Notes under the pieces: model-generated
Told to the model about the DNA's origin: nothing
What the model saw: the letters and a program-made list of their open reading frames with translations, nothing else
The model's database searches: none
Shown here: positions 1,399 through 26,804 of the stretch, one piece after another
Numbering within the stretch: position 1 is the stretch's first letter
Layout: each line of letters opens with the position of its first letter
Translations under genes and position numbers: made by a program
DNA from: an uncultured Acidobacteriota bacterium
Lineage (GTDB): Bacteria > Acidobacteriota > Thermoanaerobaculia > UBA5066 > Gp7-AA6
DNA: 64,000 nucleotides
Reading direction: 5' to 3'
Assembly: GCA_963797495.1 (NCBI GenBank)
Contig: CAWCPN010000002.1
Location: 3,240,520-3,304,519 of the forward strand

Positions 1399-1796
1399 GT
1401 TTCTGAAAAATTTCCGGGGGGGATGAAACCGCGGCGCGCGAGCGCCGCGGTTGGCGTTTGGACCGCTGCGGGCCTCCAAGTTCCCGGAGTCCGCCGTCGG
1501 GGATCCCGGCGGCGCCCGAGCGCATCCCGCCGATCGCCGGCCTCGTCAGCGCGAGGCCGCGCGCGGTCATCGATTTCGGGTTCGTCCCGGGCCTTCACGT
1601 TCTTGGGCGATCGTTCGGAAAAGCGAAATCGTCGTTGTTCGCTTCCGCGTCGGCCGCGAGCTCGTCCCCCGCGACGGGTCTTGCGTCCGCGCCCGAGCGC
1701 GTTCCGGCCCGTTCGCGCGCGGGTCGCCCGTGGCACCCGCGTTGCTCCCTCGGCGGTCAGGCGCCGTGCGTGCGGCGCCGCAGAAAGGAGCGGACA

Positions 1797-4704
1797 ATGA
1801 TGACCACCAGAAGTCCCGGGTTCCGGAGGGCGTGGATTGCGGTCGCGGCCCTGGCGGCCGTGCTCGCGTTCGCGTCGCTCGCGGCCGCGCAGCAGCTCAC
1901 GGGCAACATCATCGGCTACGTCGCCGACGAGCAGGGCGGGCGCCTGCCCGGGGTCAGCGTCACGCTCACGGGCGTGGGCGCGGCGAAGACCCAGACGACG
2001 GACGCCCGCGGCGAGTATCGTTTCGTCAGCCTGGGCCCCGGCGTCTACACGCTCGAGTACGAGCTGCAGGGGTTCGGCAAGGTCACCAAGCCCGACGTCA
2101 AGGTCTCGGTCGGGCAGAACACGGAGACGAGCGGGATTCTCCGGATCTCGGGCATCGAGACCGACGTCGTCGTGAGGGGAGAGCAGCCGCTCCTCGACAC
2201 GCGCCAGGTCCAGACCGGCGCCGTCGTCGACCAGACGGAGCTCCAGGCGATCCCGACGGCGCGCGATCCGTGGGTCATTCTCTCGACGGTGCCGGGCGTG
2301 CAGCTCGACCGGGTCAACGTCGGCGGCAACGAGAGCGGCCAGCAGTCGACCTACGTCGGCAAGGGCGCGGACTCGAGCCAGAACACCTGGAACCTCGACG
2401 GCGTCACGATCACCGACATGGGCGCACTCGGGTCCTCCCCGACCTACTACGACTTCGAGTCGTTCGAGGAGATCCAGGCCACGACCGGGGGCAGCGACGT
2501 CACCGCCACTTCGCCGGGCGTACAGCTGAATCTCGTCACCAAGCGCGGCACCAACGACATCCACGGCTCCGCCCGGTACTACCTGGCCGACGGCGACCTC
2601 CAGTGGAACAACGTCACCGCCGAAGACCAGGCGCAGGGCGTGACCAACGGGGGCAACCGGATCAACGAGGTCCAGGACTACGGCGTCGAGATCGGCGGCC
2701 CGCTGGTGCGCGACCGGCTCTGGATCTGGGGCGCCGCCGGGCGCAACCAGATCAACCTCTTCAACGCCCAGGGCAATCCGGACGATACGAAACTCGTGGA
2801 CTACAGCGCCAAGGTCAATCTGCAGCTCTTCGACTCCACGGCGCTGGCCGGGAACTTCTCCAACGGCAACAAGCAGAAGTTCGGCCGCAACGTCAGCTTC
2901 TCCCGGCCGCCGCCCGCCTCCTGGAACCAGGACGGCCCGACGACCATCTGGCGGGGCGAGGTCTCGCAGGTCTTCTCGTCGTCCCTGTTCGCCTCGGCGT
3001 CCTACTCGTCGGTCTCGAGCGGTTTCTCGCTCACGCCGCAGGGCGGGATCGACGTGAACGACCTCTACATCAACACCGACGGCCAGTTCATCGGCAGCTA
3101 CCTCTACGCCGACACCGTCCGCCCCCAGCAGCAGGCCACGGCCAACGGCTCGTACTTCTTCTCGACCGGGGAGCTCGGCCACGAGCTGAAATTCGGCTTC
3201 AACTACCGCACGACCAACGTCGAGTCGAATTCCTTCTGGCCGGGCAACGGCAACGTCGGTGACCTCGCCGACTTCAACGCGCCCGCCGCCCTCCTGACGC
3301 GGCCGGCCGTCCTCGACTCGACGCTGGACTACTACAGCGGCTACCTGGCGGACACGCTGACGCTGGGGAACCTGACGATCAATGCCGGAGTCCGTTTCGA
3401 CTCGCAGAAGGGGCGCAACCTCGCGACCACGACGCCCGCCAATCCCGTGATCCCGGACCTCCTGCCGGCCGTCACCGCGCCCGGCGGAGCGACTCCGTTC
3501 ACCTGGGAGGACGTCGTGCCGCGCGTGGGGGCGACCTACGCCCTCGGCGCCGACCGGAAGACGCTGCTCCGGGCGAGTTACTCGCAGTATGCGGACCAGC
3601 TCGGTTCGGCGGCGATCGGCTTCATCAGTGCGGGGCAGATCGCCGGTCTCTACTATTACTGGAACGACGCCAACGGGGATTTCGTCGTGACGCGCGACGA
3701 GCTCGACCTCTCGAACCTCATCGCCAGCTATGGCGTCGACCCGGCGAACCCGGGCTCGGCCATTTCCGCCAACCGCATCGATCCCAACCTGAAGGCGGGC
3801 AAGACGACCGAGGTCATCGGCGGCATCGAGCGCGAGCTGTCCGACGACCTCGTGGTCGGCGTCAGCTACACCTACCGCAAATACACGGGCGCAGCTCTAT
3901 CCCCACCGGACGGGCCTCACCGAGGACGACTACGAGGTGGGGGGCGTCCTGACGGGAACGCTGTTCGACGGCTCGCCCTTCAGTCAGCCGTACTACCAGT
4001 TGAAGCCCGGCGTCGGGGTTCCGGCCGGCGTCACGCTGGAGAACCGGCCCGACTGGAACACCGTCTACAACGGCGTCGAGCTTTCGTTTCAGAAGCGGTT
4101 GACCGACAAATGGCTCGTCCGCGGCAGCGGCACCTACCAGACCTGGAACCAGAATGGCGGCGCCGGCTCCTGCTACGACCCGACGAGCGACCGCGGCGGC
4201 AACAACGAGCTCTGGCCCGGGACGGCGATCGCGATCCAGACCGGTTCGACCTGCGCGGGCAACGACATCGCGGCGTTTCCCGCCGGCTCGAACAGCGGCT
4301 CGCGCAACGAGGTCTTCCTCAACGCGCGGTGGCTCTTCAACGTCGGCGCCCTGTACCAGCTCCCGGCGGGCTTCGCCGTCGCGGGCAATTTCTTCGGCCG
4401 CGAGGGCTACCCGTACGTCAACTACTACCGGTTCGATCCGGGCGACGGCCTCGGGACCCGGGACAACGTCATCGGCAAGCTCTCCGATCATCGGTACGAC
4501 GACGTCTACGAGCTCGACCTGCGCCTCGAGAAGGTGATCGCGGTCAACCCTCTCCAGATCACCCTCGCGGCCGACGTCTTCAACGTCCTCAACCAGGGCA
4601 CCATCCTGCAGAGGAACGCCCGCGTGGACGTTTCCGCCTACGACAGCATCATCGAGATGCAGAGCCCGCGCGTCGTTCGCTTCGGCGCGCGAATCGGCTT
4701 CTAG
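1797..4704 (+). CDS. TonB-dependent outer-membrane receptor with N-terminal carboxypeptidase-regulatory-like domain, interrupted by one frameshift near 3890
   Basis: The signal peptide MMTTRSPGFRRAWIAVAALAAVLAFASLAAAQQ is followed by the CarboxypepD_reg motif YRFVSLGPGVYTL, a plug and a barrel. The barrel is continuous in frame 0 to about 3893 (..YTYRKYTG) and then continues in frame +1 (QLYPHRTGLTEDDYEVGG..). It ends with the canonical C-terminal aromatic motif ..RFGARIGF. A leader of about 400 nt precedes the ATG. Confidence 0.8.
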
Positions 4705-4956
4705 GCGGCCGCCTCCGGCACTCTCCGTGGCGGGCCTTCCCGGGGCCCGCCCTTTCTGTCTGCCCTGGGGCCGGGAGCGGCCGGGGCCGCCCTTCGTGGC
4801 AAGATACGGGCCCTGAGCGAGAAGAGCCCCGATTCGACCGCGCGCATCCCGCCCCCCCGCGGTTTCGACGTCGTCTGTCTCCCGATCATCGATTGGGGAT
4901 TTCGCGTCCAGCGGCCGCAGCAGCTCCTGAAGCCTTTCGCCGCGGCGGGGCACCGC

Positions 4957-7900
4957 GTGTTCTACGGGAAGACCTCTTTTCTCGGCCTCGACCGGGAGCC
5001 GGAGCTGGCGGAAGTCGCGGAGCGCGTTTTCGAGATCGGGCTGCCGGGCGAGCACGACTTCGACCTCTACGGGAGGACCGTCGGCGGCGAAACGCTCGAC
5101 CAGGCGTTCGCCGGGATCGCGGAGCTCGCCGAGCGGCACGGGATCCGGGACGCCGTGGTTCTCGTGCAGTACCCCTCGTGGGAGCCCCTGTCGCGGAGGC
5201 TGCGCGAGGAGCTCGGGTGGCGGGTCGTCTACGACTGCATGGACGACCACTCGGGGTTCGGAACGCACGGGCCAGACACGGCGGCCGACGAGGAGCGGCT
5301 CCTGCGCGGCGCCGACCTCGTCCTCGTGACCTCCTCGAAGCTCGAGGAGCGCGTGCGGCGGGTTCGCCCGGACGCCCTGCGCCTCCCGAATGCGGGCGAC
5401 GAGCGGCACTTCGCGCGGCTCCCGCCGCGGGCCGCGAGCCCGCTCGCGCGCCTGCCGCGCCCGGTCGTCGGGTACTACGGCGCCATCTCCGCCTGGTTCG
5501 ACGGCCCGGCGGTCCGGCAAGCCGCGGCGCGGTATCCGGACTGGTCCTTCGCGCTCATCGGCGACACGCGCGGCGCCGAGCTCGGGGATCTCGCCACGCG
5601 CCCGAACGTGCACCTGACGGGAGAAGTGGCCTACGGAGAGCTGCCGTCCTATCTCGCGGCCTTCGACGTCTGCACGATCCCGTTCCGGCGGACGCCGCTG
5701 ACCGAGGCCACCAATCCCGTCAAGATCTTCGAATACTTCGCCACGGGCAAGCCCGTGGTCGCCCGGCGCCTGCCGGAGCTCGAGCCGTACTCCGACGTTG
5801 TGGACCTGTACGAGACTTCCGCCGAGTTCGTCGCGGCGCTCGAGCGCGCGATCCGCGAGGGCGTGTCCCCGGGACCGGCGGCGGACCGGCGGCGCCGACT
5901 CGCGCGGGAGAACACCTGGCAGGCGCGATACGAGGCGCTGCGGGAGCGACTCGATGCAATCCCCTCGCCCCGACCCTCGCCCTCGGGGAGAGGGGGCACG
6001 GTTGCGCCGGCCTCGGACGCGGTGGACCGGCGCGTCAAGGAGATCCGGCGGCTCGCCGCCATCGTCCGGGAGCGGGAGGAGGGCATCCGGTTTCTGCAGG
6101 GAGAGCTCGCGGGCCTCGAGCGCCAGCTTCGCGGCAACATCGAGGACCTGGAAACCCAGCTCGCCCGGGCCGAGGAGACCTCGGAGGCCCGGGGCGCGCA
6201 TCTGTCCGCCGTTCTCGAGGAGCTCTCGCGCTGGGAGAACTCGCGCCTCGGGCAGCTTCGTAGGGCGGCCGAACGCGTCCGAGGGGTTCCCGGCTCGGCC
6301 CGGCGGGCGCTCGGGCGGGCGACCGCGCCCGGGACCCCGCTCTTCGAGATCGGCCGTCGGACCATTCCGCGCCCCTTCGCCCGGTACCTGCGGCGGACGT
6401 TCGCCCCCGTGGCGCAGCCCGAGAAGCTCGTGACGCTGCCGGCCGACGCGCCGCGCCGCCAGGACGCCGTGCCGGCCGTGCCGTCGGGCCATTACGACGT
6501 CGTCGTCTTCTCGATCATCGACTGGGACTTCCGCTTCCAGCGGCCGCAACAGCTGGCGACGCAGTTCGGCCGCCACGGCCACCGCGTCCTGTACCTGTCG
6601 ACCACGAAGTTTCTGGCGCCGGGCGGTCCGGCCTGGGACCTGGCCCGCAAGGCCGAGAACGTGGGGGAGTTGCGCATCCGGTCGCGCCGCGCCCTCGGTA
6701 TCTACAGCGGCCGTCTCGAGGAGGCCGACCTCGACACGCTCGTCGCCGCCTTCGAGTCCCTGGCACGCGACCTCGCCATGGGCGACACGGTCGGCGTCGT
6801 CCAGATTCCGTTCTGGGCCCCGCTCGCCGAACGGCTGCGCGAGCGGCTCGGCTGGCGCGTGGTGTACGACTGCATGGACGAGTGGACGAACTTTCCGGGC
6901 TTCGGCCAGAGCGTGCTGTCGCTCGAGGAGAATCTCGTCCGCCGCGCCGACGTGACCGTCGTTTCGGCCGACCGGCTGCTCGAGAAGTGGAAGGGTGTCG
7001 CCCCGCGGCTCACACTCGCGAAGAACGGCATCGACGCGGAGCACTACCGCCGCCTCTATGGTCCGAACGCGCTCCTGAAGGACGCCCGGCGGCCGATCAT
7101 CGGCTACTACGGGGCGCTGGCGTCCTGGGTGGACGTGCCGCTCCTGACGAAGATCGCCGACGCGCATCCGGACGCGACGATCGTGCTCGCGGGCGGCCAC
7201 TTCGACGTGGACCTCTCGCCGATCGTCTCGCGAAGCAACCTCCGGCTTCTCGGCCAGCGGCCCTACGAGGAGATGCCGAAGCTCCTCTGGAGCTTCGACG
7301 CCTGCGTGATCCCGTTTCTCGTCAACGACATCACCGAGGCCACCAACCCGGTCAAGTTCTACGAGTACCTCTACGGCGGCAAGCCCGTCGTCGCCCCGGC
7401 GTTGACGGAGCTTCTGCCGTACGCGGACATCTCCTACCTCGCCCGCGGCCACGACGAGTTCCTGGCCCAGCTTTCCCGGGCGCTGGCCGAGCCGACGGAC
7501 GACCCGCGCCGGGCGAAGCGCCGCCAGGTCGCCGAGGAGAACGACTGGGCGCACCGGTACGCGGCGATCGACGCCGGCCTCGCCGAAGCACACCCTCTCG
7601 TCTCGGTCGTCGTGGTGACCTACGGCGGCCTGGAGCTGACGAGGGCCTGCCTCGACTCGCTCGACCGCGAGACCTGGCCGCGCCTGGAGATCCTCGTCGT
7701 CGACAACGCCTCCAACGACGGCACCCCCGAATACCTGCGCGAGGCCGCGGCCCGGGAGCCCCGGATCCGGACGATCCTCAACGCCGAGAATCGCGGTTTC
7801 GCCGCCGCCAACAACCAGGGGATCGCCGCTTCGAGCGGCGAGGTCGTCGTGCTCTTGAACAACGACACGGTGGTTCCGCCGGGCCTCATGGGCATGCTCG

Positions 7901-8391
7901 TCCGGCACCTCGAGCGGGATCCTTCCATCGGCCTCCTGTGCCCCACGACCAACTTCTGCGGCAATGAGGCCCGGGTGGAACCGGATTACGAAGAGATCGG
8001 CGGGCTTCCGAACTTTGCCGCCCGCCGCGCCGAGGCGCATCGCGGCCGCGTCTTCGACATCGGTGTCGCGGCGATGTACTGCGTCGCCGCCCGGCGGGCC
8101 GTCCTCGACGACGTCGGGCCTCTCGACGAGGCGTACGGGATCGGCATGTTCGAGGACGACGACTTCGCCGTCCGGATGCGTGCGAAGGGCTACCGCGTCG
8201 CCTGCGCCGAGGACGCCTACGTCCATCACGTCGGCCAGGGGGCCTTCCGCAAGCTCTCGCCCGCGGCCTACGACGCGCTCTGGAAGAAGAACCAGGCCTA
8301 CTTCGAGAAGAAGTTCGGGGTCGAATGGAAGAAGCACATCCCGCGCGAGGGGGTGGCGGCGGTGGCGTCGAAGGTGGGGGCGGAGTCCTGA
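4957..8391 (+). CDS. tri-domain glycosyltransferase: GT4-like module, coiled coil, second GT4-like module, then a GT2 (DxD) module. The true start lies upstream of 4957 (about 4800-4950).
   Basis: An internal duplication is visible. FDVVCLPIIDWGFRVQRPQQL (encoded from about 4865) matches YDVVVFSIIDWDFRFQRPQQL (about 6490). Both modules carry an EX7E-like motif, EATNPVKIFEY and EATNPVKFYEY. Residues about 355-440 are heptad-like and Glu/Arg/Leu rich, which suggests a coiled coil. The C-terminal module has VSVVVVTYGG..ILVVDNASNDGT..NRGFAAANNQG, typical of GT2. The frame is open back to the TonB stop at 4704 with no ATG, GTG or TTG, so the start is non-canonical or lost to an indel. A 7-C run at 4849-4857 is a candidate site. 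Confidence 0.8.
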   Translation: MFYGKTSFLGLDREPELAEVAERVFEIGLPGEHDFDLYGRTVGGETLDQAFAGIAELAERHGIRDAVVLVQYPSWEPLSRRLREELGWRVVYDCMDDHSGFGTHGPDTAADEERLLRGADLVLVTSSKLEERVRRVRPDALRLPNAGDERHFARLPPRAASPLARLPRPVVGYYGAISAWFDGPAVRQAAARYPDWSFALIGDTRGAELGDLATRPNVHLTGEVAYGELPSYLAAFDVCTIPFRRTPLTEATNPVKIFEYFATGKPVVARRLPELEPYSDVVDLYETSAEFVAALERAIREGVSPGPAADRRRRLARENTWQARYEALRERLDAIPSPRPSPSGRGGTVAPASDAVDRRVKEIRRLAAIVREREEGIRFLQGELAGLERQLRGNIEDLETQLARAEETSEARGAHLSAVLEELSRWENSRLGQLRRAAERVRGVPGSARRALGRATAPGTPLFEIGRRTIPRPFARYLRRTFAPVAQPEKLVTLPADAPRRQDAVPAVPSGHYDVVVFSIIDWDFRFQRPQQLATQFGRHGHRVLYLSTTKFLAPGGPAWDLARKAENVGELRIRSRRALGIYSGRLEEADLDTLVAAFESLARDLAMGDTVGVVQIPFWAPLAERLRERLGWRVVYDCMDEWTNFPGFGQSVLSLEENLVRRADVTVVSADRLLEKWKGVAPRLTLAKNGIDAEHYRRLYGPNALLKDARRPIIGYYGALASWVDVPLLTKIADAHPDATIVLAGGHFDVDLSPIVSRSNLRLLGQRPYEEMPKLLWSFDACVIPFLVNDITEATNPVKFYEYLYGGKPVVAPALTELLPYADISYLARGHDEFLAQLSRALAEPTDDPRRAKRRQVAEENDWAHRYAAIDAGLAEAHPLVSVVVVTYGGLELTRACLDSLDRETWPRLEILVVDNASNDGTPEYLREAAAREPRIRTILNAENRGFAAANNQGIAASSGEVVVLLNNDTVVPPGLMGMLVRHLERDPSIGLLCPTTNFCGNEARVEPDYEEIGGLPNFAARRAEAHRGRVFDIGVAAMYCVAARRAVLDDVGPLDEAYGIGMFEDDDFAVRMRAKGYRVACAEDAYVHHVGQGAFRKLSPAAYDALWKKNQAYFEKKFGVEWKKHIPREGVAAVASKVGAES

Positions 8392-8441
8392 GGCTCGGTG
8401 GGCCGGTCGGCCGCGTGGCTCTCAACCGGTGGCTTTGTGGC

Positions 8442-9854
8442 ATGGCCGTTGTCGTGGCCGGCGCCATCCTTTCGCTGCAGCTGCTGGTGCCTCCGGTCGT
8501 GGGACTGGCGGACAACGGAGACTTCGAAAAGGTCATGGCCCCGGTCGGCCTGGCATATCCGACCGCGAGCTACGGCGAGCGGCACTGGTCCTGGGCGCTG
8601 ACCCGTTTTTCGGTCGTGGCTCCGCGGCCTTCCAACAGCGGCGCCCTCTATTCGGAGATTCTGGTGGCCGGCATGGCCGCCCGACTCAGCCGCTGGCTGC
8701 GGCCGGAGGGCGCCCGAGTCTTCGACATTCGGACTCTCGGAGCGGTCCACATCGTGGTGCTGCTCGGCGCGATCGCGCTGATCCTCGCAGCCTGTCGGGA
8801 CCTGGCGCCCGTCACGCAGGTTGCCGTCGCCGTCCTTCTCGTCTTTTTCTTCACGGACGTCGGCTACGCCGCCTGTTTCAACTCTCTGTACGGGCAGACG
8901 GCGTCTTTCCTGTTTCTCTTCTATCTGGTTGGGATCGCGGGACTGGCGGTGCGGCGGGGCGGCCTGTCGTGGCCGCTCCTCGGCGGATACGTTCTCTGCG
9001 CAGTCCTGTTCCTGGCGTCCAAGCCCCAGGAGTGCATCCACGGGCCGGTCCTCGCGCTGTTGGGCGTGGCCCTCGCCGGCCCCAGGAAGGGCTGGGTCGC
9101 GGCGGGCCTCGGCGTCGCGCTGATCGCCTTTTCCGCCTGGTACTACTACGACGCGATCCCGGAGCTCGAGATCCGGAAAGTCGCGCGGTACCACACGGTC
9201 TTCATGGAGCTTCTTCCGAATTCGCCGCAACCCGCGCGCGATCTCGCCGAGCTCGGCCTCGACGCGGATCTCATCCGATACTCGGGGATCCACGCATACC
9301 TCCCGACGTCTCCGATCGGAGATCCCGGCTTTCAGGCCCGGTTCTTCGAGCGATTCGGGTACCGCAAGCTCCTCGTCTTCTACGCCACCCACCCGTCCCG
9401 CCTGTTCGATCGCACCCGAAGGGCGGCCCGGCGTGCCTTCCGCCTCCGGCCCGCGTCGCTGGGTAATTTCGCCGAGGATGCCGGACGCCCGGCCGGCGAG
9501 CAGACGAGGCGGTTTGCCGCGTGGAGCGATCTGCGGCTCCGGCTGGGTCGCCGGGGACTCCTCTGGCTGGGCCTCGCGCTCGGTGGCACGGCGCTCTTCG
9601 TGGGCCACGGGTTCGGACGGGCCTCGCCGCGCGGGCGGTCGTTTCGCACGGCGCTCGGAGCTCTCGTGATCATGGCGACCGTCGAATTCTTCGTGTGCGC
9701 TCTGGCGGACTTTCTCGGCGACCTGCCGCGGCACCTCTACGCCTTCCAGGCGATGTTCGACCTCATTCTGATCGCGGATGCGGGATGGCTGGTGCAGTCA
9801 TTCGTCTCCTGGAGCCGGCGTCGCGCCTTGAGCCTCGCACCCGGATCGGCCTGA
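8442..9854 (+). CDS. polytopic integral membrane protein (hypothetical; possible membrane glycosyltransferase or polymerase of the glycan locus)
   Basis: ATG at residue 40 of ORF 8325..9854. About 10 predicted TM helices followed by a soluble Arg-rich tail. The gene lies immediately downstream of the tri-domain GT. Confidence 0.55.
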   Translation: MAVVVAGAILSLQLLVPPVVGLADNGDFEKVMAPVGLAYPTASYGERHWSWALTRFSVVAPRPSNSGALYSEILVAGMAARLSRWLRPEGARVFDIRTLGAVHIVVLLGAIALILAACRDLAPVTQVAVAVLLVFFFTDVGYAACFNSLYGQTASFLFLFYLVGIAGLAVRRGGLSWPLLGGYVLCAVLFLASKPQECIHGPVLALLGVALAGPRKGWVAAGLGVALIAFSAWYYYDAIPELEIRKVARYHTVFMELLPNSPQPARDLAELGLDADLIRYSGIHAYLPTSPIGDPGFQARFFERFGYRKLLVFYATHPSRLFDRTRRAARRAFRLRPASLGNFAEDAGRPAGEQTRRFAAWSDLRLRLGRRGLLWLGLALGGTALFVGHGFGRASPRGRSFRTALGALVIMATVEFFVCALADFLGDLPRHLYAFQAMFDLILIADAGWLVQSFVSWSRRRALSLAPGSA

Positions 9855-9862
9855 GCGAGACC

Positions 9863-10684
9863 CTAACGCGGCGTGTCGCGATGGCGCAGCAGGACCGTGT
9901 CCTGGCTCTTCTGCATGCGCAGAGCCTGGATGTCGAGGACGTCGAAGAATCGCACCCACTGGCGGCGGATGTAATCGTGTGTATGGAAGGTGTTCTGGTA
10001 GAACGCAGGGAGGTCGATGGACTGACCGTAGACTCCGTCGACGTAGAGGAAGCCCTCGCGGCGGATTCGCTCGAGCCGGTCGCCGGAGAACTGACTGTAG
10101 TGGTGTTCTCCGCTCGTCGTCACGACGAGCAGGGCGCCCGGCCTGGTGATTCGCCGTAGCTCCCCGAGCCACGCGAGCTGCATGTCCTCGGGCAGATGCG
10201 TGAAGACGCTGATGCCGATGATGAGGTCGAAGTACTCGTCGGGGTAGGGCAACGGCGGCAGGTGGGGAGAAAGGCGAAACTCGCCATAGCGACCGTACCT
10301 GCGCTGCAGGAATCCGATCGCCTCCTCGTCGATGTCCGTTCCGTGGGTCTCGCAACCCGGATACAGGGTCTTCAGCGCGCGGATGGTCCGGCCGCAGCCG
10401 CATCCCCAGTCGAGGACGCGCTGAAAGCTCGCCAGATCCTGGTCAACGACCGAGAGGACCGAATTCAAGTCATCGCAGATCGAGAAACCGCTCTCGATGA
10501 AGCCCGGGACGTAGCCACCGACGACCCTCACCTGCATGTGCTTGGGCGGCGGCAGGACGATCCCCTCGTGGCGGACCACCGCGCGGAGCTGCTCGACGGT
10601 GGCTTCGAGGTCTTCGATACGGCCGCGCTTCTCCGCGAGATCGGCCTCCCGCCACTGTTCGAGTCTCTCGATGCGCGGGCCCAT
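9863..10684 (-). CDS. class I SAM-dependent methyltransferase with N-terminal coiled-coil extension
   Basis: Motif I is VLDWGCGCGRTIRAL and the post-I acidic residue is in THGTDIDEEAI. The N-terminus RIERLEQWREADLAEKRGRIEDLEATVEQLRAV is a predicted coiled coil. An alternative TTG start at 10765 would overlap the upstream TGA (TTGA). Confidence 0.7.
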   Translation of the reverse strand: MGPRIERLEQWREADLAEKRGRIEDLEATVEQLRAVVRHEGIVLPPPKHMQVRVVGGYVPGFIESGFSICDDLNSVLSVVDQDLASFQRVLDWGCGCGRTIRALKTLYPGCETHGTDIDEEAIGFLQRRYGRYGEFRLSPHLPPLPYPDEYFDLIIGISVFTHLPEDMQLAWLGELRRITRPGALLVVTTSGEHHYSQFSGDRLERIRREGFLYVDGVYGQSIDLPAFYQNTFHTHDYIRRQWVRFFDVLDIQALRMQKSQDTVLLRHRDTPR

Positions 10685-10761
10685 GCGTTGCCACGCGGCC
10701 GCTTGAACGGCCGCCTTGACCTTCTGCCACAGCCGGGGCGGCGTGATGCGCTTGAGCCAGC

Positions 10762-12282
10762 TCAAGGTGTCGCGTCTCTCGACGACCCCGGGGGCCCGGG
10801 AAGGGCCGACGACGGTCGCGATGCGCGGATCGCCGTCTGGACCAGGAAGGCCAGGCCCCCGAGCAGGCACAGCCCGGCGAAGATGCGAACCGGCCGGTCC
10901 TCCGGTCGAATCACTCGACCGCGCAGAATCAGAGGTTGAGGGACGGCGAAAGGTCGCACGTCCACGGGCTTCCAGTTTGGCACCTGGCCCGGGCTGCGGA
11001 AGTTCCAGTTGTGGCCCGCTGCGACGAACGCGGGCCCCCGGTCGTGGCCCGTTTCGCGGCGAATCCACGCTTCGGCTAGGCGCGCGTTGAACTCGACGTG
11101 ATTCCAGAGTGGATCACCCTGGTACGTTTCGAGGAAGACGTCCGTCGTGCCCATCGCCACCCCGCCCATCGCACCGTAGTAGAAGAGGACGCCGAGGATC
11201 GAAACCGCGAGCCCGGCGGCTGCCGAAAGCACCAGAGCGGGGCGTCCTGCGCGGCGGCCCGGCGCGTAGCTCGCGGCGAGGCTCAGCACGAGGGGAGCGA
11301 TGGCCGCGTGGAGATATCGCGGCCCCCACGTATCCTCGGCCCACAGATCGAGAAGGGAGAAGCCGCCAGCCAGTCCGGCCACGGAAAGGACGGCGAAAAC
11401 CGCGACTGGCCGGTTCCGCCGCCAGGCCGCGGGAAGGCGCACCAGCGCAACCACCGCGACCGGGGCGAAGACGAGCAGCCCCTTGTTCGGCGAACCGATG
11501 AATCCCACCAGATGCAGCAGGGGAGCCACGACGCTCCGGGCGCGGAAGCCGCGCAGGTACGCGCCGGTCCCGCCGAATCGCTCCCAGGATGCGATTCGCC
11601 AGGATGCGTTGAGCAGGTACGCGGCTGCCACCACTGCCAGGATCGCGAGCGCCCGTGCCGCGTGCGCCCGGACAGGGAGCGCCGCGCGGCCCCATCGCGC
11701 GGCGAAGCTCCAGATCAGATATCCGACGGCCGGCGCGAGCATCACGCCGTTCGACTTGGAGGCGACGGCGAAGACGCAGCAGATCGTGAAGAGCGCCACC
11801 GCCGGCCAGCGCGGTCGGCGGGAGTCGCCGAGCGCCAGGAAACCTGCGGCCAGAAGGGCCAGAGCTTGTGTGGTCTCGAGTCCGATGTACGCATAGGGCC
11901 AGAGCATCGTGGCGAACCCCGCCGTCAGCGAGAGCGCCAGGGCGAACCCTGCGCCATGCCCCAGGCGCGAGCACCAGACGAACAGCAGCGTCACGATACC
12001 GGCCGTCGCCGCGACGGGCTGGATGGACAAGGCACGGTCGCCCCAGGCGGGGCCGCCGGCGGCATCGCCGAGGAGCACGAACGGACACTCGAGCAGGACC
12101 GCCGCGGGTCCGTTGCGCCCCCAGTCGACTTCGCGCAGCGAGTGGCCGCTCCCGGCGGCCGCGCGGCAGGCGGCAACGTCGAAATGGACATAGCCCATCC
12201 CGACGGTTGAAAACGGGGACATCGAGAGATAGAGAAGAAATACGGCAAAGAACAACGCCAGAACCGGAGGGCGGCTAGACAT
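10762..12282 (-). CDS. polytopic membrane protein, possible GT-C-fold (PMT/ArnT-like) glycosyltransferase
   Basis: The ATG overlaps the upstream stop (ATGA) and GAAGGA lies just upstream. About 11 TM helices are followed by a periplasmic-type C-terminal domain (..LETYQGDPLWNHVEFN..). The family assignment is tentative. Confidence 0.6.
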   Translation of the reverse strand: MSSRPPVLALFFAVFLLYLSMSPFSTVGMGYVHFDVAACRAAAGSGHSLREVDWGRNGPAAVLLECPFVLLGDAAGGPAWGDRALSIQPVAATAGIVTLLFVWCSRLGHGAGFALALSLTAGFATMLWPYAYIGLETTQALALLAAGFLALGDSRRPRWPAVALFTICCVFAVASKSNGVMLAPAVGYLIWSFAARWGRAALPVRAHAARALAILAVVAAAYLLNASWRIASWERFGGTGAYLRGFRARSVVAPLLHLVGFIGSPNKGLLVFAPVAVVALVRLPAAWRRNRPVAVFAVLSVAGLAGGFSLLDLWAEDTWGPRYLHAAIAPLVLSLAASYAPGRRAGRPALVLSAAAGLAVSILGVLFYYGAMGGVAMGTTDVFLETYQGDPLWNHVEFNARLAEAWIRRETGHDRGPAFVAAGHNWNFRSPGQVPNWKPVDVRPFAVPQPLILRGRVIRPEDRPVRIFAGLCLLGGLAFLVQTAIRASRPSSALPGPPGSSRDATP

Positions 12283-13202
12283 CAGTCCTTCGGCCGCCGC
12301 CCGACGAGCAGCTGAAAATCGCTTGTCAGCAGTCCCGAGTCGACGAGGGCGTCCTCGGTCTCCCACACGGCTCGCAGGATCGCCTCGGCCTCCGGATCCC
12401 CCGGCGTGAAGTTGTGGGCGATGCCGTTGTAGAGCAGGTGCTGAATCGTCCCCCCGAGGAGCTTCCGGTGCGGGACCTCGAAGTACCGTTCGAAGAGCGG
12501 CCCGATCTCCGCCGACCGGATCGACTCGAAAGGGGACGCCGCCACGACCTCCTCGACGGTCGGCCGGCCCTCGTAGGGCTTCACCTCGCCCCGCCGAAGC
12601 GTCCGGAAGCGCGGCGGAATCAGGGCCATGAGGGCCTTCGTCAGCTCGATCTGCTGGTCGGTCCACTGGAACTGGGTCGGACCGACGAACTCTTCGAGGA
12701 TGAAGAGGCCGTGCGGCGTCATGGCGTCGAGGACCTGGGTCATGACGTGCTCGAGCTCGAGGAAGTGGTGGAAGCTGTGAGACGAGACGACCAGGTCGTA
12801 CCGGTTCGGTTCGAGACGGAGCCGGTTGCAGTCCTCGACGCGAAAGTGTCCGGGCGCGCCGGCCTTTTCCCGCGCCGCCTCCGCCTCCCGCACCCGGTCC
12901 GGGCTCGCGTCCATCCCCTCGACCTCGCGGGTCGAACCGATCCGGTGGAGCTGCAGGCTCAACGAACCCGAGCCGCAGCCCAGTTCCAGGCTGCGCTCCG
13001 CGGGCCCGCCGAGCTCCCGGGCGAGCCACCGCCGCCAGGGCAGGCCGTCGATCCGGCTCCGGGACTCGTAGTGGGTCTGTATCGACGGGTGGTCGATCCA
13101 GGCATGCATCTCGTGGGTGGCTTCGACAGCCAGATGATCGCCCCACTTGCGGCCCTCCGCCTGGAGACGCTCCTGATAATCGGAAGAGCTCGGATGCGTC
13201 AC
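12282..13202 (-). CDS. class I SAM-dependent methyltransferase
   Basis: GTG start overlapping the upstream TGA (GTGA), with GAGG upstream. Motif I is LELGCGSGSLSL. The remainder is a Methyltransf_11/12-like fold. Confidence 0.7.
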   Translation of the reverse strand: MTHPSSSDYQERLQAEGRKWGDHLAVEATHEMHAWIDHPSIQTHYESRSRIDGLPWRRWLARELGGPAERSLELGCGSGSLSLQLHRIGSTREVEGMDASPDRVREAEAAREKAGAPGHFRVEDCNRLRLEPNRYDLVVSSHSFHHFLELEHVMTQVLDAMTPHGLFILEEFVGPTQFQWTDQQIELTKALMALIPPRFRTLRRGEVKPYEGRPTVEEVVAASPFESIRSAEIGPLFERYFEVPHRKLLGGTIQHLLYNGIAHNFTPGDPEAEAILRAVWETEDALVDSGLLTSDFQLLVGRRPKD

Positions 13203-14566
13203 GGAACCTCGGACGGATGATACGGCCAGCCGAGCGCGCGCGCGGCGGCGAACATGACGAGGAGGATCGCGGCCGGGGCCAGCTGTGCGAGCAGCCGCGG
13301 GAGTGCCTGCGCGACGTGCAGCTCGAGGGGCCAGTTGGTCTGAAGGAAAATCGCCCACCAGGCGACCAGGGCCGCCGAAACCCCCGCGGCCAGGCATCGC
13401 TCGCGAACACAGCTCCGCCGCAGCAGGTACACGACCGCGACGGCGAGCGCGGGCCAGAGCAGGCCCCACCGTGAGACGTCGAGGGCCGACTCGACACAGA
13501 GGCGCCCGACGTGAAGGATCCGCCGCCGCGATTCGGCGAGGCTTCCCGGCGCGGTGATGCTCCGGAAGTTGGGATCGTCCACCGCGAGCCACGCGAGGTA
13601 GGCGAGTCTCGCGGCCACGAACGCGGCGACGACGGCGATGCCGCGTGCGTGCGCGACAAGCCGGCGGGCGGCCCGGTGCCGGTCGGCCAGAACCCAGGAC
13701 GCCGCGACGGCGAGGCACGCGATCGCCGCGAGGATCAACCCTTCGTTCTTCACGACGGTCAGTGCGCCGATCATCCAGGGGAGGGCGCCCGCGTCGCGGG
13801 GGCGCAGGGATGCCGCGACGGTCGCCGCGACGATCGCGGCCACGGGCATGTCGGCATAGCCGCCGGCCGCCGACCGCGTCGAGAGTCCGGGCACGACGGC
13901 GACGAGAAGGGTCGCCAGGAGCGCCGCCCGGCGGGAGAGACGCGAGGACGCGGCGGCATAAGTCGAGACGAGAAGCGCCGCGTAGAAGAGGAGGAAGATC
14001 GGCTTCAGGGCGTCGAAGTCGAAGCCGCGCCGCGACAGCGACAGGAGTCCCTCGAGCATCGGGACGAGAGGGGGATAGGTCAGGAGCCGCCGGTTGTAGA
14101 CGTCCCCGGCGTACCACTCGCGGCCCAGTCCGCCTTCGACGACGAGCCTCTGCGCCTTGCTCGCCCAGATCTGGAACCCGTCCCACCACAGGGGGTGGCG
14201 CAGATCGAGAACCGTGAAGGCGAGGACCGCGGCGGCGATCGCGGCGAGCAGGAGGATGGATCGCGGGTCCAGGGGGGCCGTCGCTCCATCGATTGCGTCA
14301 CGGTTCGGAAGCCGCGCGACGACGCGGCGGGCGGCCGCGAGGAGCAGGGCGCCGGCGAGGACGGCCGCGATCGCGACCAGCGCGTGCTTCGGCACGAGCA
14401 CGGACAGGGGGAAGAGCAGCGCCGCGCAGGCGGCGCCCCCGCCGACGAAGCGGACCGTCCATCCGAAGGGGCCGCGGGTGCCGGGAGGCATCCACAGGCC
14501 GCCGAGCGACGCGAGGGCGAGGGCGAGCAAACCGGTCCAGAGCAGTTCGTGCACCGGGACGCTCAC
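13199..14566 (-). CDS. polytopic integral membrane protein (hypothetical; candidate GT-C-like or polymerase)
   Basis: GTG start overlapping the upstream stop (GTGA). More than 10 hydrophobic helices, with loops that include a ..HPLWWDGFQIW.. motif. Confidence 0.55.
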   Translation of the reverse strand: MSVPVHELLWTGLLALALASLGGLWMPPGTRGPFGWTVRFVGGGAACAALLFPLSVLVPKHALVAIAAVLAGALLLAAARRVVARLPNRDAIDGATAPLDPRSILLLAAIAAAVLAFTVLDLRHPLWWDGFQIWASKAQRLVVEGGLGREWYAGDVYNRRLLTYPPLVPMLEGLLSLSRRGFDFDALKPIFLLFYAALLVSTYAAASSRLSRRAALLATLLVAVVPGLSTRSAAGGYADMPVAAIVAATVAASLRPRDAGALPWMIGALTVVKNEGLILAAIACLAVAASWVLADRHRAARRLVAHARGIAVVAAFVAARLAYLAWLAVDDPNFRSITAPGSLAESRRRILHVGRLCVESALDVSRWGLLWPALAVAVVYLLRRSCVRERCLAAGVSAALVAWWAIFLQTNWPLELHVAQALPRLLAQLAPAAILLVMFAAARALGWPYHPSEVP

Positions 14567-26641: not shown

Positions 26642-26717
26642 TGGAGCCGACGACCGGACTTGAACCGGTGACCTGCGGTTTACGAAACCGCTGCTCTACC
26701 GACTGAGCTACGTCGGC
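26642..26717 (-). tRNA. tRNA-Thr (anticodon CGU)
   Basis: Reverse complement GCCGACGUAGCUCAGUCGGUAGAGCAGCGGUUUCGUAAACCGCAGGUCACCGGUUCAAGUCCGGUCGUCGGCUCCA. The 7-bp acceptor, D, anticodon and T arms fold canonically. The anticodon loop UUCGUAA gives CGU. CCA is encoded. Confidence 0.85.
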
Positions 26718-26804
26718 TCGGGGTTCGAGCGGGGCATCTTACGGAAAGGGCGGGGGGGCGTCAAACGGCCGGCCCGTGCCGCCCGTGTCCGGAGGCCCCG
26801 GGCC

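Follow-up and report, generated by a model that had tools for sequence, protein, structure and literature searches.

Where does translation of a large glycosyltransferase gene begin when its reading frame offers no ATG, GTG or TTG ahead of the first catalytic module? The question arises in a 64,000 nucleotide (nt) stretch of contig CAWCPN010000002.1 (assembly GCA_963797495.1), hereafter the window, from an uncultured Acidobacteriota bacterium. Frame 1 of the plus strand is open from 4705, directly after the TAG stop codon (4702-4704) of the upstream gene, and ends at a stop codon at 8389-8391. The first in-frame ATG, GTG or TTG is the GTG at 4957-4959, inside the first of two family 4 glycosyltransferase (GT4) modules; a CTG at 4813 and an ATA at 4804 are also in frame. 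This GTG is the start codon of the public annotation (P0001, 1,144 amino acids, aa). Counted from the CTG it is the internal residue 49, in strand beta2 of an AlphaFold2 (AF2) model. The coding sequence proposed here occupies 4813-8391 on the plus strand, with 1,192 codons and a stop codon, and orthologues of 1,100-1,250 aa share its architecture.

The case is more than an annotation glitch: this is a clade-wide gene without a canonical start, in which an invariant CTG lies 7 nt past a block that resembles a promoter -10 element. That CTG 4813 serves as the start codon, by whatever mechanism, is fairly probable. The fuller reading, in which the block is a promoter and translation begins at CUG 4813, has about an even chance of being correct. 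Its strictest form, a leaderless mRNA with the CUG as its very first codon across this Acidobacteriota (Thermoanaerobaculia-like) clade, is tentative, with chances below even.

A reading frame without a canonical start

More than 50 protein orthologues were found, with 67-83% identity and the same architecture; where named, they belong to the Thermoanaerobaculia or Acidobacteriota. DNA of the orthologous loci was drawn from GTDB genomes (Nanopore metagenome-assembled genomes, MAGs), Illumina metagenomes of the Joint Genome Institute (JGI) and individual look-ups, giving 42 loci, 40 of them distinct; the JGI loci are among the matches listed, and more than 330 further matches lie beyond these. 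The lack of a canonical start upstream of GTG 4957, recognized in the original prediction from this sequence, is a layout common to the 42 loci. At 25 of them, no in-frame ATG, GTG or TTG occurs between the nearest upstream stop codon and the first conserved strand, and at the others canonical codons stand at scattered, non-homologous positions, as chance would give.

A normal start might have been hidden by an assembly indel, either in a seven-C run at 4849-4857, as was originally suggested, or elsewhere in 4705-4956. The upstream receptor-like gene switches from frame 0 to frame 1 at about 3893/3895, beside a GGG run, and the upstream open reading frame (ORF) of locus L165 matches 3390-3893 and 3895-4701 in different frames. 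This change is either an assembly indel or the mark of a pseudogene; it suggests that the assembly is not free of indels, so the concern was a reasonable one. In addition, the gene carries frameshifts or stop codons at related loci from Nanopore MAGs (L013, L011 and L053). However, Illumina and Nanopore orthologues agree in frame and in run length and are alike start-less. More than 20 contigs from Illumina metagenomes, and MAGs of independent origin, have this layout with identical length through the C run, and the run in the window is as long as the interrupted runs of orthologues (CCGCCACCCCGC, CCGCCTCCCCGC). The other two frames offer no conserved start. The same layout and run length across independent assemblies indicate that the missing start is no assembly error, and the indel explanation is effectively refuted.

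The long-read Microflora Danica (MFD) MAG contigs include four (L013, L011, L053 and L001) in which the orthologous ORF is broken by a stop codon or frameshift within the first 400-425 codons. Sequencing indels are the likely cause, with pseudogenes as the alternative.

Alternatively, the public annotation could be right, with GTG 4957 or a different internal codon as the start and an N-terminally truncated or decaying first GT4 module. GTG 4957 is the first canonical start in the frame, and gene callers picked internal starts in most orthologues. The starts chosen, however, differ between orthologues: the annotated N-termini are spread across the first 150 residues, and most of the more than 50 orthologues are annotated without the first IIDW motif. 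An orthologue alignment placing the start at or after 4957 had been named in advance as the result that would count against an upstream start, and the alignment came out the opposite way. Across columns 4858-4956, the mean entropy for first, second and third codon positions is 0.33, 0.23 and 0.88 bits, respectively (40 sequences), a pattern indicating strong purifying selection at the protein level. The same stretch encodes the beta1-loop-alpha1 unit with the family's most conserved motif, IIDWxFRxQRPQQL, which is kept in the second GT4 module; a start at 4957 would remove the first 48 residues, this unit of the fold included. Judged by sequence conservation and the structural model together, translation must begin upstream of 4957, and an internal start is very improbable.

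The conserved block and the invariant CTG

All 42 loci share the pattern (C)GTGGC-AAGATA-N6-CTGA-(G/A)C, which lies at 4795-4818 in the window. It consists of a conserved block on the plus strand, CGTGGCAAGATA (4795-4806), with TG at 4797-4798 and CAAGAT at 4800-4805; a spacer of fixed length and variable sequence (4807-4812), 6 nt long in 41 of the 42 loci and 5 nt long in L099; and the CTG (4813-4815), the proposed initiation codon. None of the 40 distinct loci departs from the tetranucleotide CTGA or has its CTG out of frame. In these 40 loci the block is nearly invariant, even at what would be wobble positions (the third bases of CGT and ATA); ATA is the rarest isoleucine codon at the GC content found here. 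Conservation of these wobble positions indicates a constraint on the nucleotides rather than on a peptide. Conservation is lost 5' of the block (about 1.7 bits per column). Each locus has a single copy of the block, solely at the glycosyltransferase gene, and the window likewise has just one. Variation in the spacer shows no codon periodicity, and the would-be third positions are among the least variable.

Downstream of the CTG, the pattern is that of coding sequence. The CLPIIDW strand follows the CTG at 33, 60, 63, 69 or 72 nt, a span that takes in the N-terminal tail of the protein; the value is always a multiple of 3, as are all indels downstream of the CTG. This indicates that reading-frame constraint starts at or before the CTG. 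The only non-triplet indel of the whole region is the one in L099, between AAGATA and CTG. At this locus ATA is out of frame and runs into a TGA; in the frame of the ORF, a TGA stop codon directly precedes CAAGAT, and CTG is the sole in-frame near-cognate codon after the upstream stop. This comparison favours CTG 4813 over ATA 4804 as the start codon. The CTG had been put forward as an example of a rare start, and every one of the 42 orthologous loci (40 distinct) has it, in frame.

Initiation at ATA 4804 (AUA; AUU in two lineages), on a leadered mRNA, would give a protein beginning M-R-A-L-S and would make the conserved block a special ribosome-binding region. ATA or ATT is present in 42 of 42 loci and in frame in 41, the next codon is mostly arginine through the synonymous CGG, AGG and CGA, and in Escherichia coli AUA and AUU have a near-cognate efficiency similar to that of CUG (bioRxiv 10.1101/063800). 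However, the 5-nt spacer puts ATA out of frame in L099, the two codons after ATA show no coding periodicity and no Shine-Dalgarno-like sequence is found upstream. Where a terminator abuts the block, a leader would require read-through of that terminator. In addition, ATA falls within the -10-like element, which is explained independently. Translation from ATA is quite unlikely.

Departures from the common pattern include those of L162 and L161. L162 (5960-6003 of contig JBBEBB010000034.1, a Thermoanaerobaculia MAG; protein P0006) represents a lineage nested in the clade in which the 5' region has been replaced and the N-terminal tail of the protein is missing. Here, TATACT is followed 6 nt later by a GTG that opens an out-of-frame ORF of 8 codons, then by AGGA and by a TTG start two codons before FDVLCLP. 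The TGA of the short ORF overlaps this TTG (TTGA), mirroring the CTGA overlap of the main type. L161 (730-775 of Ga0210180_11479935) has two promoter-like units one after the other: TGaCAGATT-8-GTG, whose GTG is in frame, and then TAAGATT-6-CTG. A canonical GTG start of leaderless appearance, 21 nt 5' of the CTG, may have arisen in this lineage.

The block as a putative promoter and proposed initiation at CUG

The block is best read as an extended -10 promoter, TG-n-CAAGAT. As in extended -10 (TGn) sigma-70 promoters, there is a TG at -15/-14, an A at -11 and a T at -7, a combination found in 34 of the 35 distinct TG-bearing loci, and the -35 region shows no conservation. The hexamer begins with C at -12 in 35 distinct loci (34 with CAAGAT, and L164 with CCAGAT), all of which have the TG. 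The remaining five (L006, L100, L105, L110 and L161), from at least two lineages on a rough tree, have TAAGAT and none has the TG. Thus the TG appears dispensable where the hexamer improves from CAAGAT to TAAGAT, a further likeness to promoters of this class. Within the 64 kb window, TGnCAAGAT occurs once, at the glycosyltransferase gene, and TAAGAT occurs once on either strand, as the -10 element of a TTGACG-17-TAAGAT promoter preceding tRNA-Thr. This tRNA-Thr(CGT) gene (26642-26717) is the only tRNA gene of the window, and its textbook promoter (26741-26769, minus strand) lies about 20 nt before it.

In many loci the block adjoins the terminator of the upstream gene at a distance of 0-25 nt, and a promoter would be needed at this point. 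The terminator of the window is an intrinsic-terminator-like hairpin, GGCGGGCC-TTC-CCGGGGCCCGCC, with a T-rich tail (4729-4761, plus strand; hairpin 4729-4751), which belongs to the upstream receptor-like gene. Its stem has 10 pairs, 8 of them G-C, and is followed by CTTTCTGTCT. Equivalent hairpins and T runs stand 0-25 nt before the block in L010, L085, L096, L059, L090, L104 and L119.

The hexamer is separated from the CTG by 7 nt in 41 of 42 loci and by 6 nt in L099, and no GGAG-like motif is present. A -10 element 6-8 nt before the start codon, in the absence of a Shine-Dalgarno sequence, is characteristic of the leaderless mRNAs of Mycobacterium, Deinococcus and Caulobacter, and with a spacing of 7 nt transcription would be expected to start on the CTG or on the base before it. 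From sequence comparison we infer that the block acts as a promoter, where the transcript 5' end lies and that the ribosome uses the CUG. RNA polymerase would begin the transcript at the CUG or 1 nt before it, generating a leaderless or near-leaderless mRNA that lacks a Shine-Dalgarno sequence. The gene would be intact and expressed, with a 1,192-residue enzyme of three glycosyltransferase modules read from CUG 4813. Poor initiation at the near-cognate CUG would probably keep the output of this large enzyme low.

A number of observations weigh against this reading. The CCAGAT of L164 loses the key A at -11, and the extended -10 consensus does not account for the near-invariance of the base that follows the hexamer, which is A, or T at the two loci with TAAGATT. 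Matches to a TTGACA -35 element are no better than background, which would make the TAAGAT variants lacking TG weak as promoters. Transcription would have to start at a pyrimidine (C/C/T at the predicted site), a class of base disfavoured for initiation. A scan of about 250 kb of DNA from the clade gave no strong general TANNNT-N5-8-ATG signal. In place of the 5'-terminal AUG or GUG expected of a leaderless mRNA, all 40 distinct loci have CTG. In Caulobacter, every non-AUG codon drastically lowered reporter levels from leaderless transcripts, and 4.4% of natural leaderless mRNAs begin with a non-AUG codon (PMC8459731). In E. coli, CUG, like AUA and AUU, starts translation at about 1-2% of the AUG level (bioRxiv 10.1101/063800). 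Finally, the frame evidence separating CTG from ATA comes from a single contig, L099, and at many loci a short ORF ends close to the CTG, as described below.

Other functions for the block were also considered. A simple sigma-70 scanner, which requires a -35 element, found no promoter in 4400-5100. In 4500-5100, an Rfam scan with E values of up to 5 gave just a chance match to a small nucleolar RNA and no known RNA element, and inspection of the orthologues revealed no conserved hairpin formed from the spacer and CTGAGC. A sigma-54 reading of TGGCAA-N5 was rejected, the -12 GC not being conserved among the orthologues. A promoter on the minus strand (TATCTT) was dropped, as it would fire into the terminator and the 3' end of the convergent upstream gene.

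CUG 4813 could also be reached by termination-reinitiation on a leadered transcript, again without a Shine-Dalgarno sequence. The ribosome would read an out-of-frame ORF from GTG 4796 (GTG GCA AGA TAC GGG CCC TGA) or, where the upstream gene ends in the block, translate that gene, terminate at the overlapping C-TGA or just before it and restart at the CUG. A GTG or ATG is present at -17 in 37 of 42 loci, and the mini-ORF, of 3 or 6 codons, stops at the TGA overlapping the CTG or at a TAA or TAG in AAGATAA/G. In L099, L100 and L110, an upstream DoxX-like gene stops inside the block, 4-10 nt before the CTG. The GCA to GCC change of L164 is synonymous in the frame of the mini-ORF, and the replaced region of the L162 lineage again has a short GTG-initiated ORF with a TGA overlapping the TTG start.

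Against reinitiation, L006 has neither kind of ORF ending near the CTG, and L161 lacks the out-of-frame mini-ORF, its GTG being in the frame of the main ORF. Where a terminator lies upstream, as in the window, the GTG has neither a Shine-Dalgarno sequence nor a -10 element of its own. The length of the mini-ORF is not conserved (3 or 6 codons), and reinitiation leaves unexplained both the invariance of AAGAT at a wobble position of the mini-ORF and the reuse of TAAGAT as the -10 of tRNA-Thr. It is ranked lower than a promoter followed by CUG initiation, because L006 has no such ORF and the GTG of L161 is in the main frame, because the GTG has no ribosome-binding signal at loci with an upstream terminator, and because the nucleotide invariance and the tRNA match are left unexplained. 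Reinitiation is therefore considered unlikely, although it is the most credible of the competing accounts.

Frameshifting and read-through were rejected. A programmed frameshift from GTG 4796 into the main frame lacks a slippery site; moreover, at about a quarter of the loci the mini-ORF ends early, and five loci do not have its start codon. Reading through the stop codon of the upstream gene would mean passing the intervening terminator, and the upstream gene and its frame vary among loci.

At other genes of the window, all on the minus strand, an ATG takes the place of the CTG in the same -10-to-start geometry. These are smc (30314; TGcTACATT-8-ATG), which encodes the canonical SMC N-terminus MLRLKRVEIAGFKSF, a folP-like Pterin_bind gene (50232; TAGACT-6-ATG) and a small helix-turn-helix (HTH) gene (25399; TAGAAT-7-ATG). 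In addition, a gene for a 138-aa protein (14979) has a -10-like hexamer 6-8 nt before its ATG and no Shine-Dalgarno sequence. By their sequence, these four are candidate leaderless mRNAs. In contrast, ftsH (52876, minus strand) has a normal Shine-Dalgarno start, AAGGAG-7-TTG, on which ground a CTG upstream of ftsH was rejected as a leaderless start. This suggests that the organism uses both modes of initiation.

Known leaderless mRNAs begin nearly always with AUG and less often with GUG, whereas the gene described here has an invariant CUG at the proposed start. Conserved non-canonical starts have a precedent in infC, whose AUU start regulates expression. As in genes of this type, a near-cognate codon has been kept by selection across many species; however, infC-type genes are led by a Shine-Dalgarno sequence, whereas here a promoter-like element stands in place of the leader and no IF3-like feedback is evident. 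The initiation mode would be a novel variation on leaderless mRNAs and near-cognate starts. In the strictest form of the reading, no earlier case is known to us in which a bacterium naturally, and with conservation in evolution, depends on CUG to initiate translation of a leaderless transcript.

If the strictest form of this reading is true, either start-codon discrimination by the 70S ribosome is relaxed in this lineage or expression has been throttled by selection to about 1% of the AUG level. If translation starts at CUG 4813, nearly all public entries of the family are truncated at the N-terminus, in most by at least 48 residues. This would strip a catalytic domain of its first strand and nucleotide-binding loop and could mislead structural and functional work. 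Standard gene finders would miss such genes systematically, and a promoter block joined to a near-cognate codon could be searched for elsewhere. The family would also provide a natural test case of non-AUG selection without a Shine-Dalgarno sequence and probably on leaderless mRNA, a process reported to be very inefficient in model bacteria.

Protein architecture and the surrounding genes

The order of modules given in the original prediction, GT4, coiled coil, GT4 and family 2 glycosyltransferase (GT2), is borne out by Pfam and NCBIfam matches, the AF2 model and the heptad pattern. The profile searches identify two Glyco_trans_1_4 (TuaH-like) GT4 modules and one C-terminal GT2 module. GT4 membership is supported by PF13692 (64.6 bits, cut-off 27, two stretches) and PF13524 (55.9 bits, cut-off 25), and membership of GT2, with the GT-A fold, by PF00535 (102 bits, cut-off 23.3; E value 4e-29). 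Among named families, TuaH (NF047676) scores best for both GT4 modules (E value 1e-43), but the score of 149.4 bits lies far below the curated equivalog cut-off of 550. The protein also differs from TuaH, a glycosyltransferase of teichuronic acid synthesis in Bacillus subtilis, in architecture and phylum.

The AF2 model was built from 32 sequences and has a mean predicted local distance difference test score (pLDDT) of 86; residues are numbered from CTG 4813, and all modules are on the plus strand. The N-terminal tail (residues 2-18; 4816-4866) is short, rich in Ser, Pro, Ala and Arg, and poorly conserved, with pLDDT below 50 for residues 1-9. It precedes GT4 module 1 (residues 19-382; 4867-5958; pLDDT about 90), a TuaH-like module that is modelled with the GT-B fold, having two Rossmann-like domains that include the N-terminal beta1-loop-alpha1. 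In this unit, beta1 is formed by residues 19-23 and alpha1 by residues 34-44, with the loop IIDWGFRVQRP (pLDDT about 90). Foldseek matches module 1 to MshA, sucrose-phosphate synthase and a methylmannose-polysaccharide mannosyltransferase; target-normalized TM-scores for the matches to MshA, sucrose-phosphate synthase and BshA are about 0.7. Overall, the modules fall with retaining GT4 enzymes (MshA, sucrose-phosphate synthase) and with GT2 enzymes in the Foldseek comparison.

A segment rich in Glu, Arg and Leu, which had been noted as a heptad-containing separator of the GT4 modules, is a predicted coiled coil with a helical linker (residues 403-530; 6019-6402). The model has a continuous helix of 73 residues (403-475; 6019-6237) and short helices after residue 475. 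In the best register per 28-residue window, 62-88% of the a and d positions in residues 403 to about 450 are hydrophobic, as against 0-15% of the other positions. GT4 module 2 (residues 562-926; 6496-7590), also GT-B, is defined by its profile match, its alignment to module 1 and the AF2 model. The protein is closed by the GT2 (GT-A) module (residues 930-1168; 7600-8316), identified by PF00535, by sequence matches to PDB entries 6yv7 and 2z87 and by AF2. This module contains FEDDDF, and the DxD attributed to it earlier corresponds by position to LLNNDT, which we take to be at the usual DxD site.

As had been observed, the GT4 modules open with near-identical peptides, IIDW(G/D)FR(V/F)QRPQQL, and both hold EATNPVK. 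They are 41% identical over 366 aa (E value 2e-85). Shared motifs and this level of identity indicate that the modules are paralogous and that the duplication is old, not recent. The tandem duplication originally proposed is plausible, though ancient, and the history is one of module shuffling rather than a simple recent duplication. Across the coiled coil and all that follows it, many homologues (among them P0058, P0059, P0062, P0074, P0077, P0084, P0089 and P0106) are 58-73% identical to the protein, but their GT4 module 1 is replaced by another domain: PS_pyruv_trans, a methyltransferase, a methyltransferase with a kinase (as in WbdD) or a sulfotransferase. Identity in these proteins starts at about residue 390-440. 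That other enzymes hold the position of module 1 argues for shuffling. In P0048, P0049 and L005, a pyruvyltransferase is fused before a complete GT4-coiled coil-GT4-GT2 protein; these have normal start codons.

ABC-transporter-dependent O-antigen systems have a coiled-coil ruler with a chain terminator at its far end. The terminator can be a Kdo (3-deoxy-D-manno-oct-2-ulosonic acid) transferase, a methyltransferase or a kinase-methyltransferase, and WbbB and the O7 ORF6 protein have two polymerizing GT modules in the same polypeptide (PMC11231755). The protein in the window has the same arrangement as WbbB (Klebsiella pneumoniae O12), O7 ORF6 and WbdD/WbdA (E. coli O9a), namely an enzyme module, a coiled coil and two GT modules, the heptad-bearing helix 403-475 standing between GT4 module 1 and the pair formed by GT4 module 2 and GT2. 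By analogy with WbbB and K. pneumoniae O7 ORF6, it is most likely a single-polypeptide glycan assembly enzyme. Polymerization of a repeat would fall to the C-terminal GT4-GT2 pair, and a different, possibly chain-terminating sugar would be added by the N-terminal GT4 from the opposite end of the coiled coil. Its architecture resembles the known terminator-ruler-polymerase design, the likeness to the WbbB/WbdD type being an analogy of architecture, and its coiled coil is short (about 70-125 residues). Against this role, a non-exhaustive survey of ORFs, confined to the window, found no Wzm/Wzt ABC2-type transporter; the only ABC system among the ORFs examined is of the solute-import type. The swapping of modules on a constant coiled coil-GT4-GT2 core would extend the terminator-ruler-polymerase design from enterobacterial O antigens to uncultured soil Acidobacteria.

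The gene upstream (1458-4704, plus strand) encodes a TonB-dependent-receptor-like outer-membrane protein with CarboxypepD_reg, Plug and OMP beta-barrel domains. The TonB label first given to it is corrected accordingly, and in the window the gene is broken by the frameshift at about 3893/3895. At L003, L008, L053, L081, L099, L100, L110, L161 and L162 the upstream neighbour is not a receptor but a gene for a protein of 160-200 aa, which is DoxX/MauE-like where Pfam data exist and ends 4-57 nt before the CTG. In L099, this DoxX-like gene ends at a TAA inside AAGATAA.

Downstream, an ORF of 509 codons without a Pfam match (8325-9854, plus strand) overlaps the last 67 nt of the glycosyltransferase gene and has a coding-like phase of GC content at third codon positions. 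Class I SAM (S-adenosylmethionine)-methyltransferase genes (9863-11068 and 12282-14189, both on the minus strand) converge on the 3' end of the glycosyltransferase gene, and the other neighbouring genes are of the housekeeping kind. Convergent methyltransferase genes are also present at the orthologous loci L164 (4491-5282, minus strand) and L165 (5067-5903, minus strand); at L165 the next gene combines methyltransferase and GT2 domains. The convergent methyltransferases may modify the same glycan.

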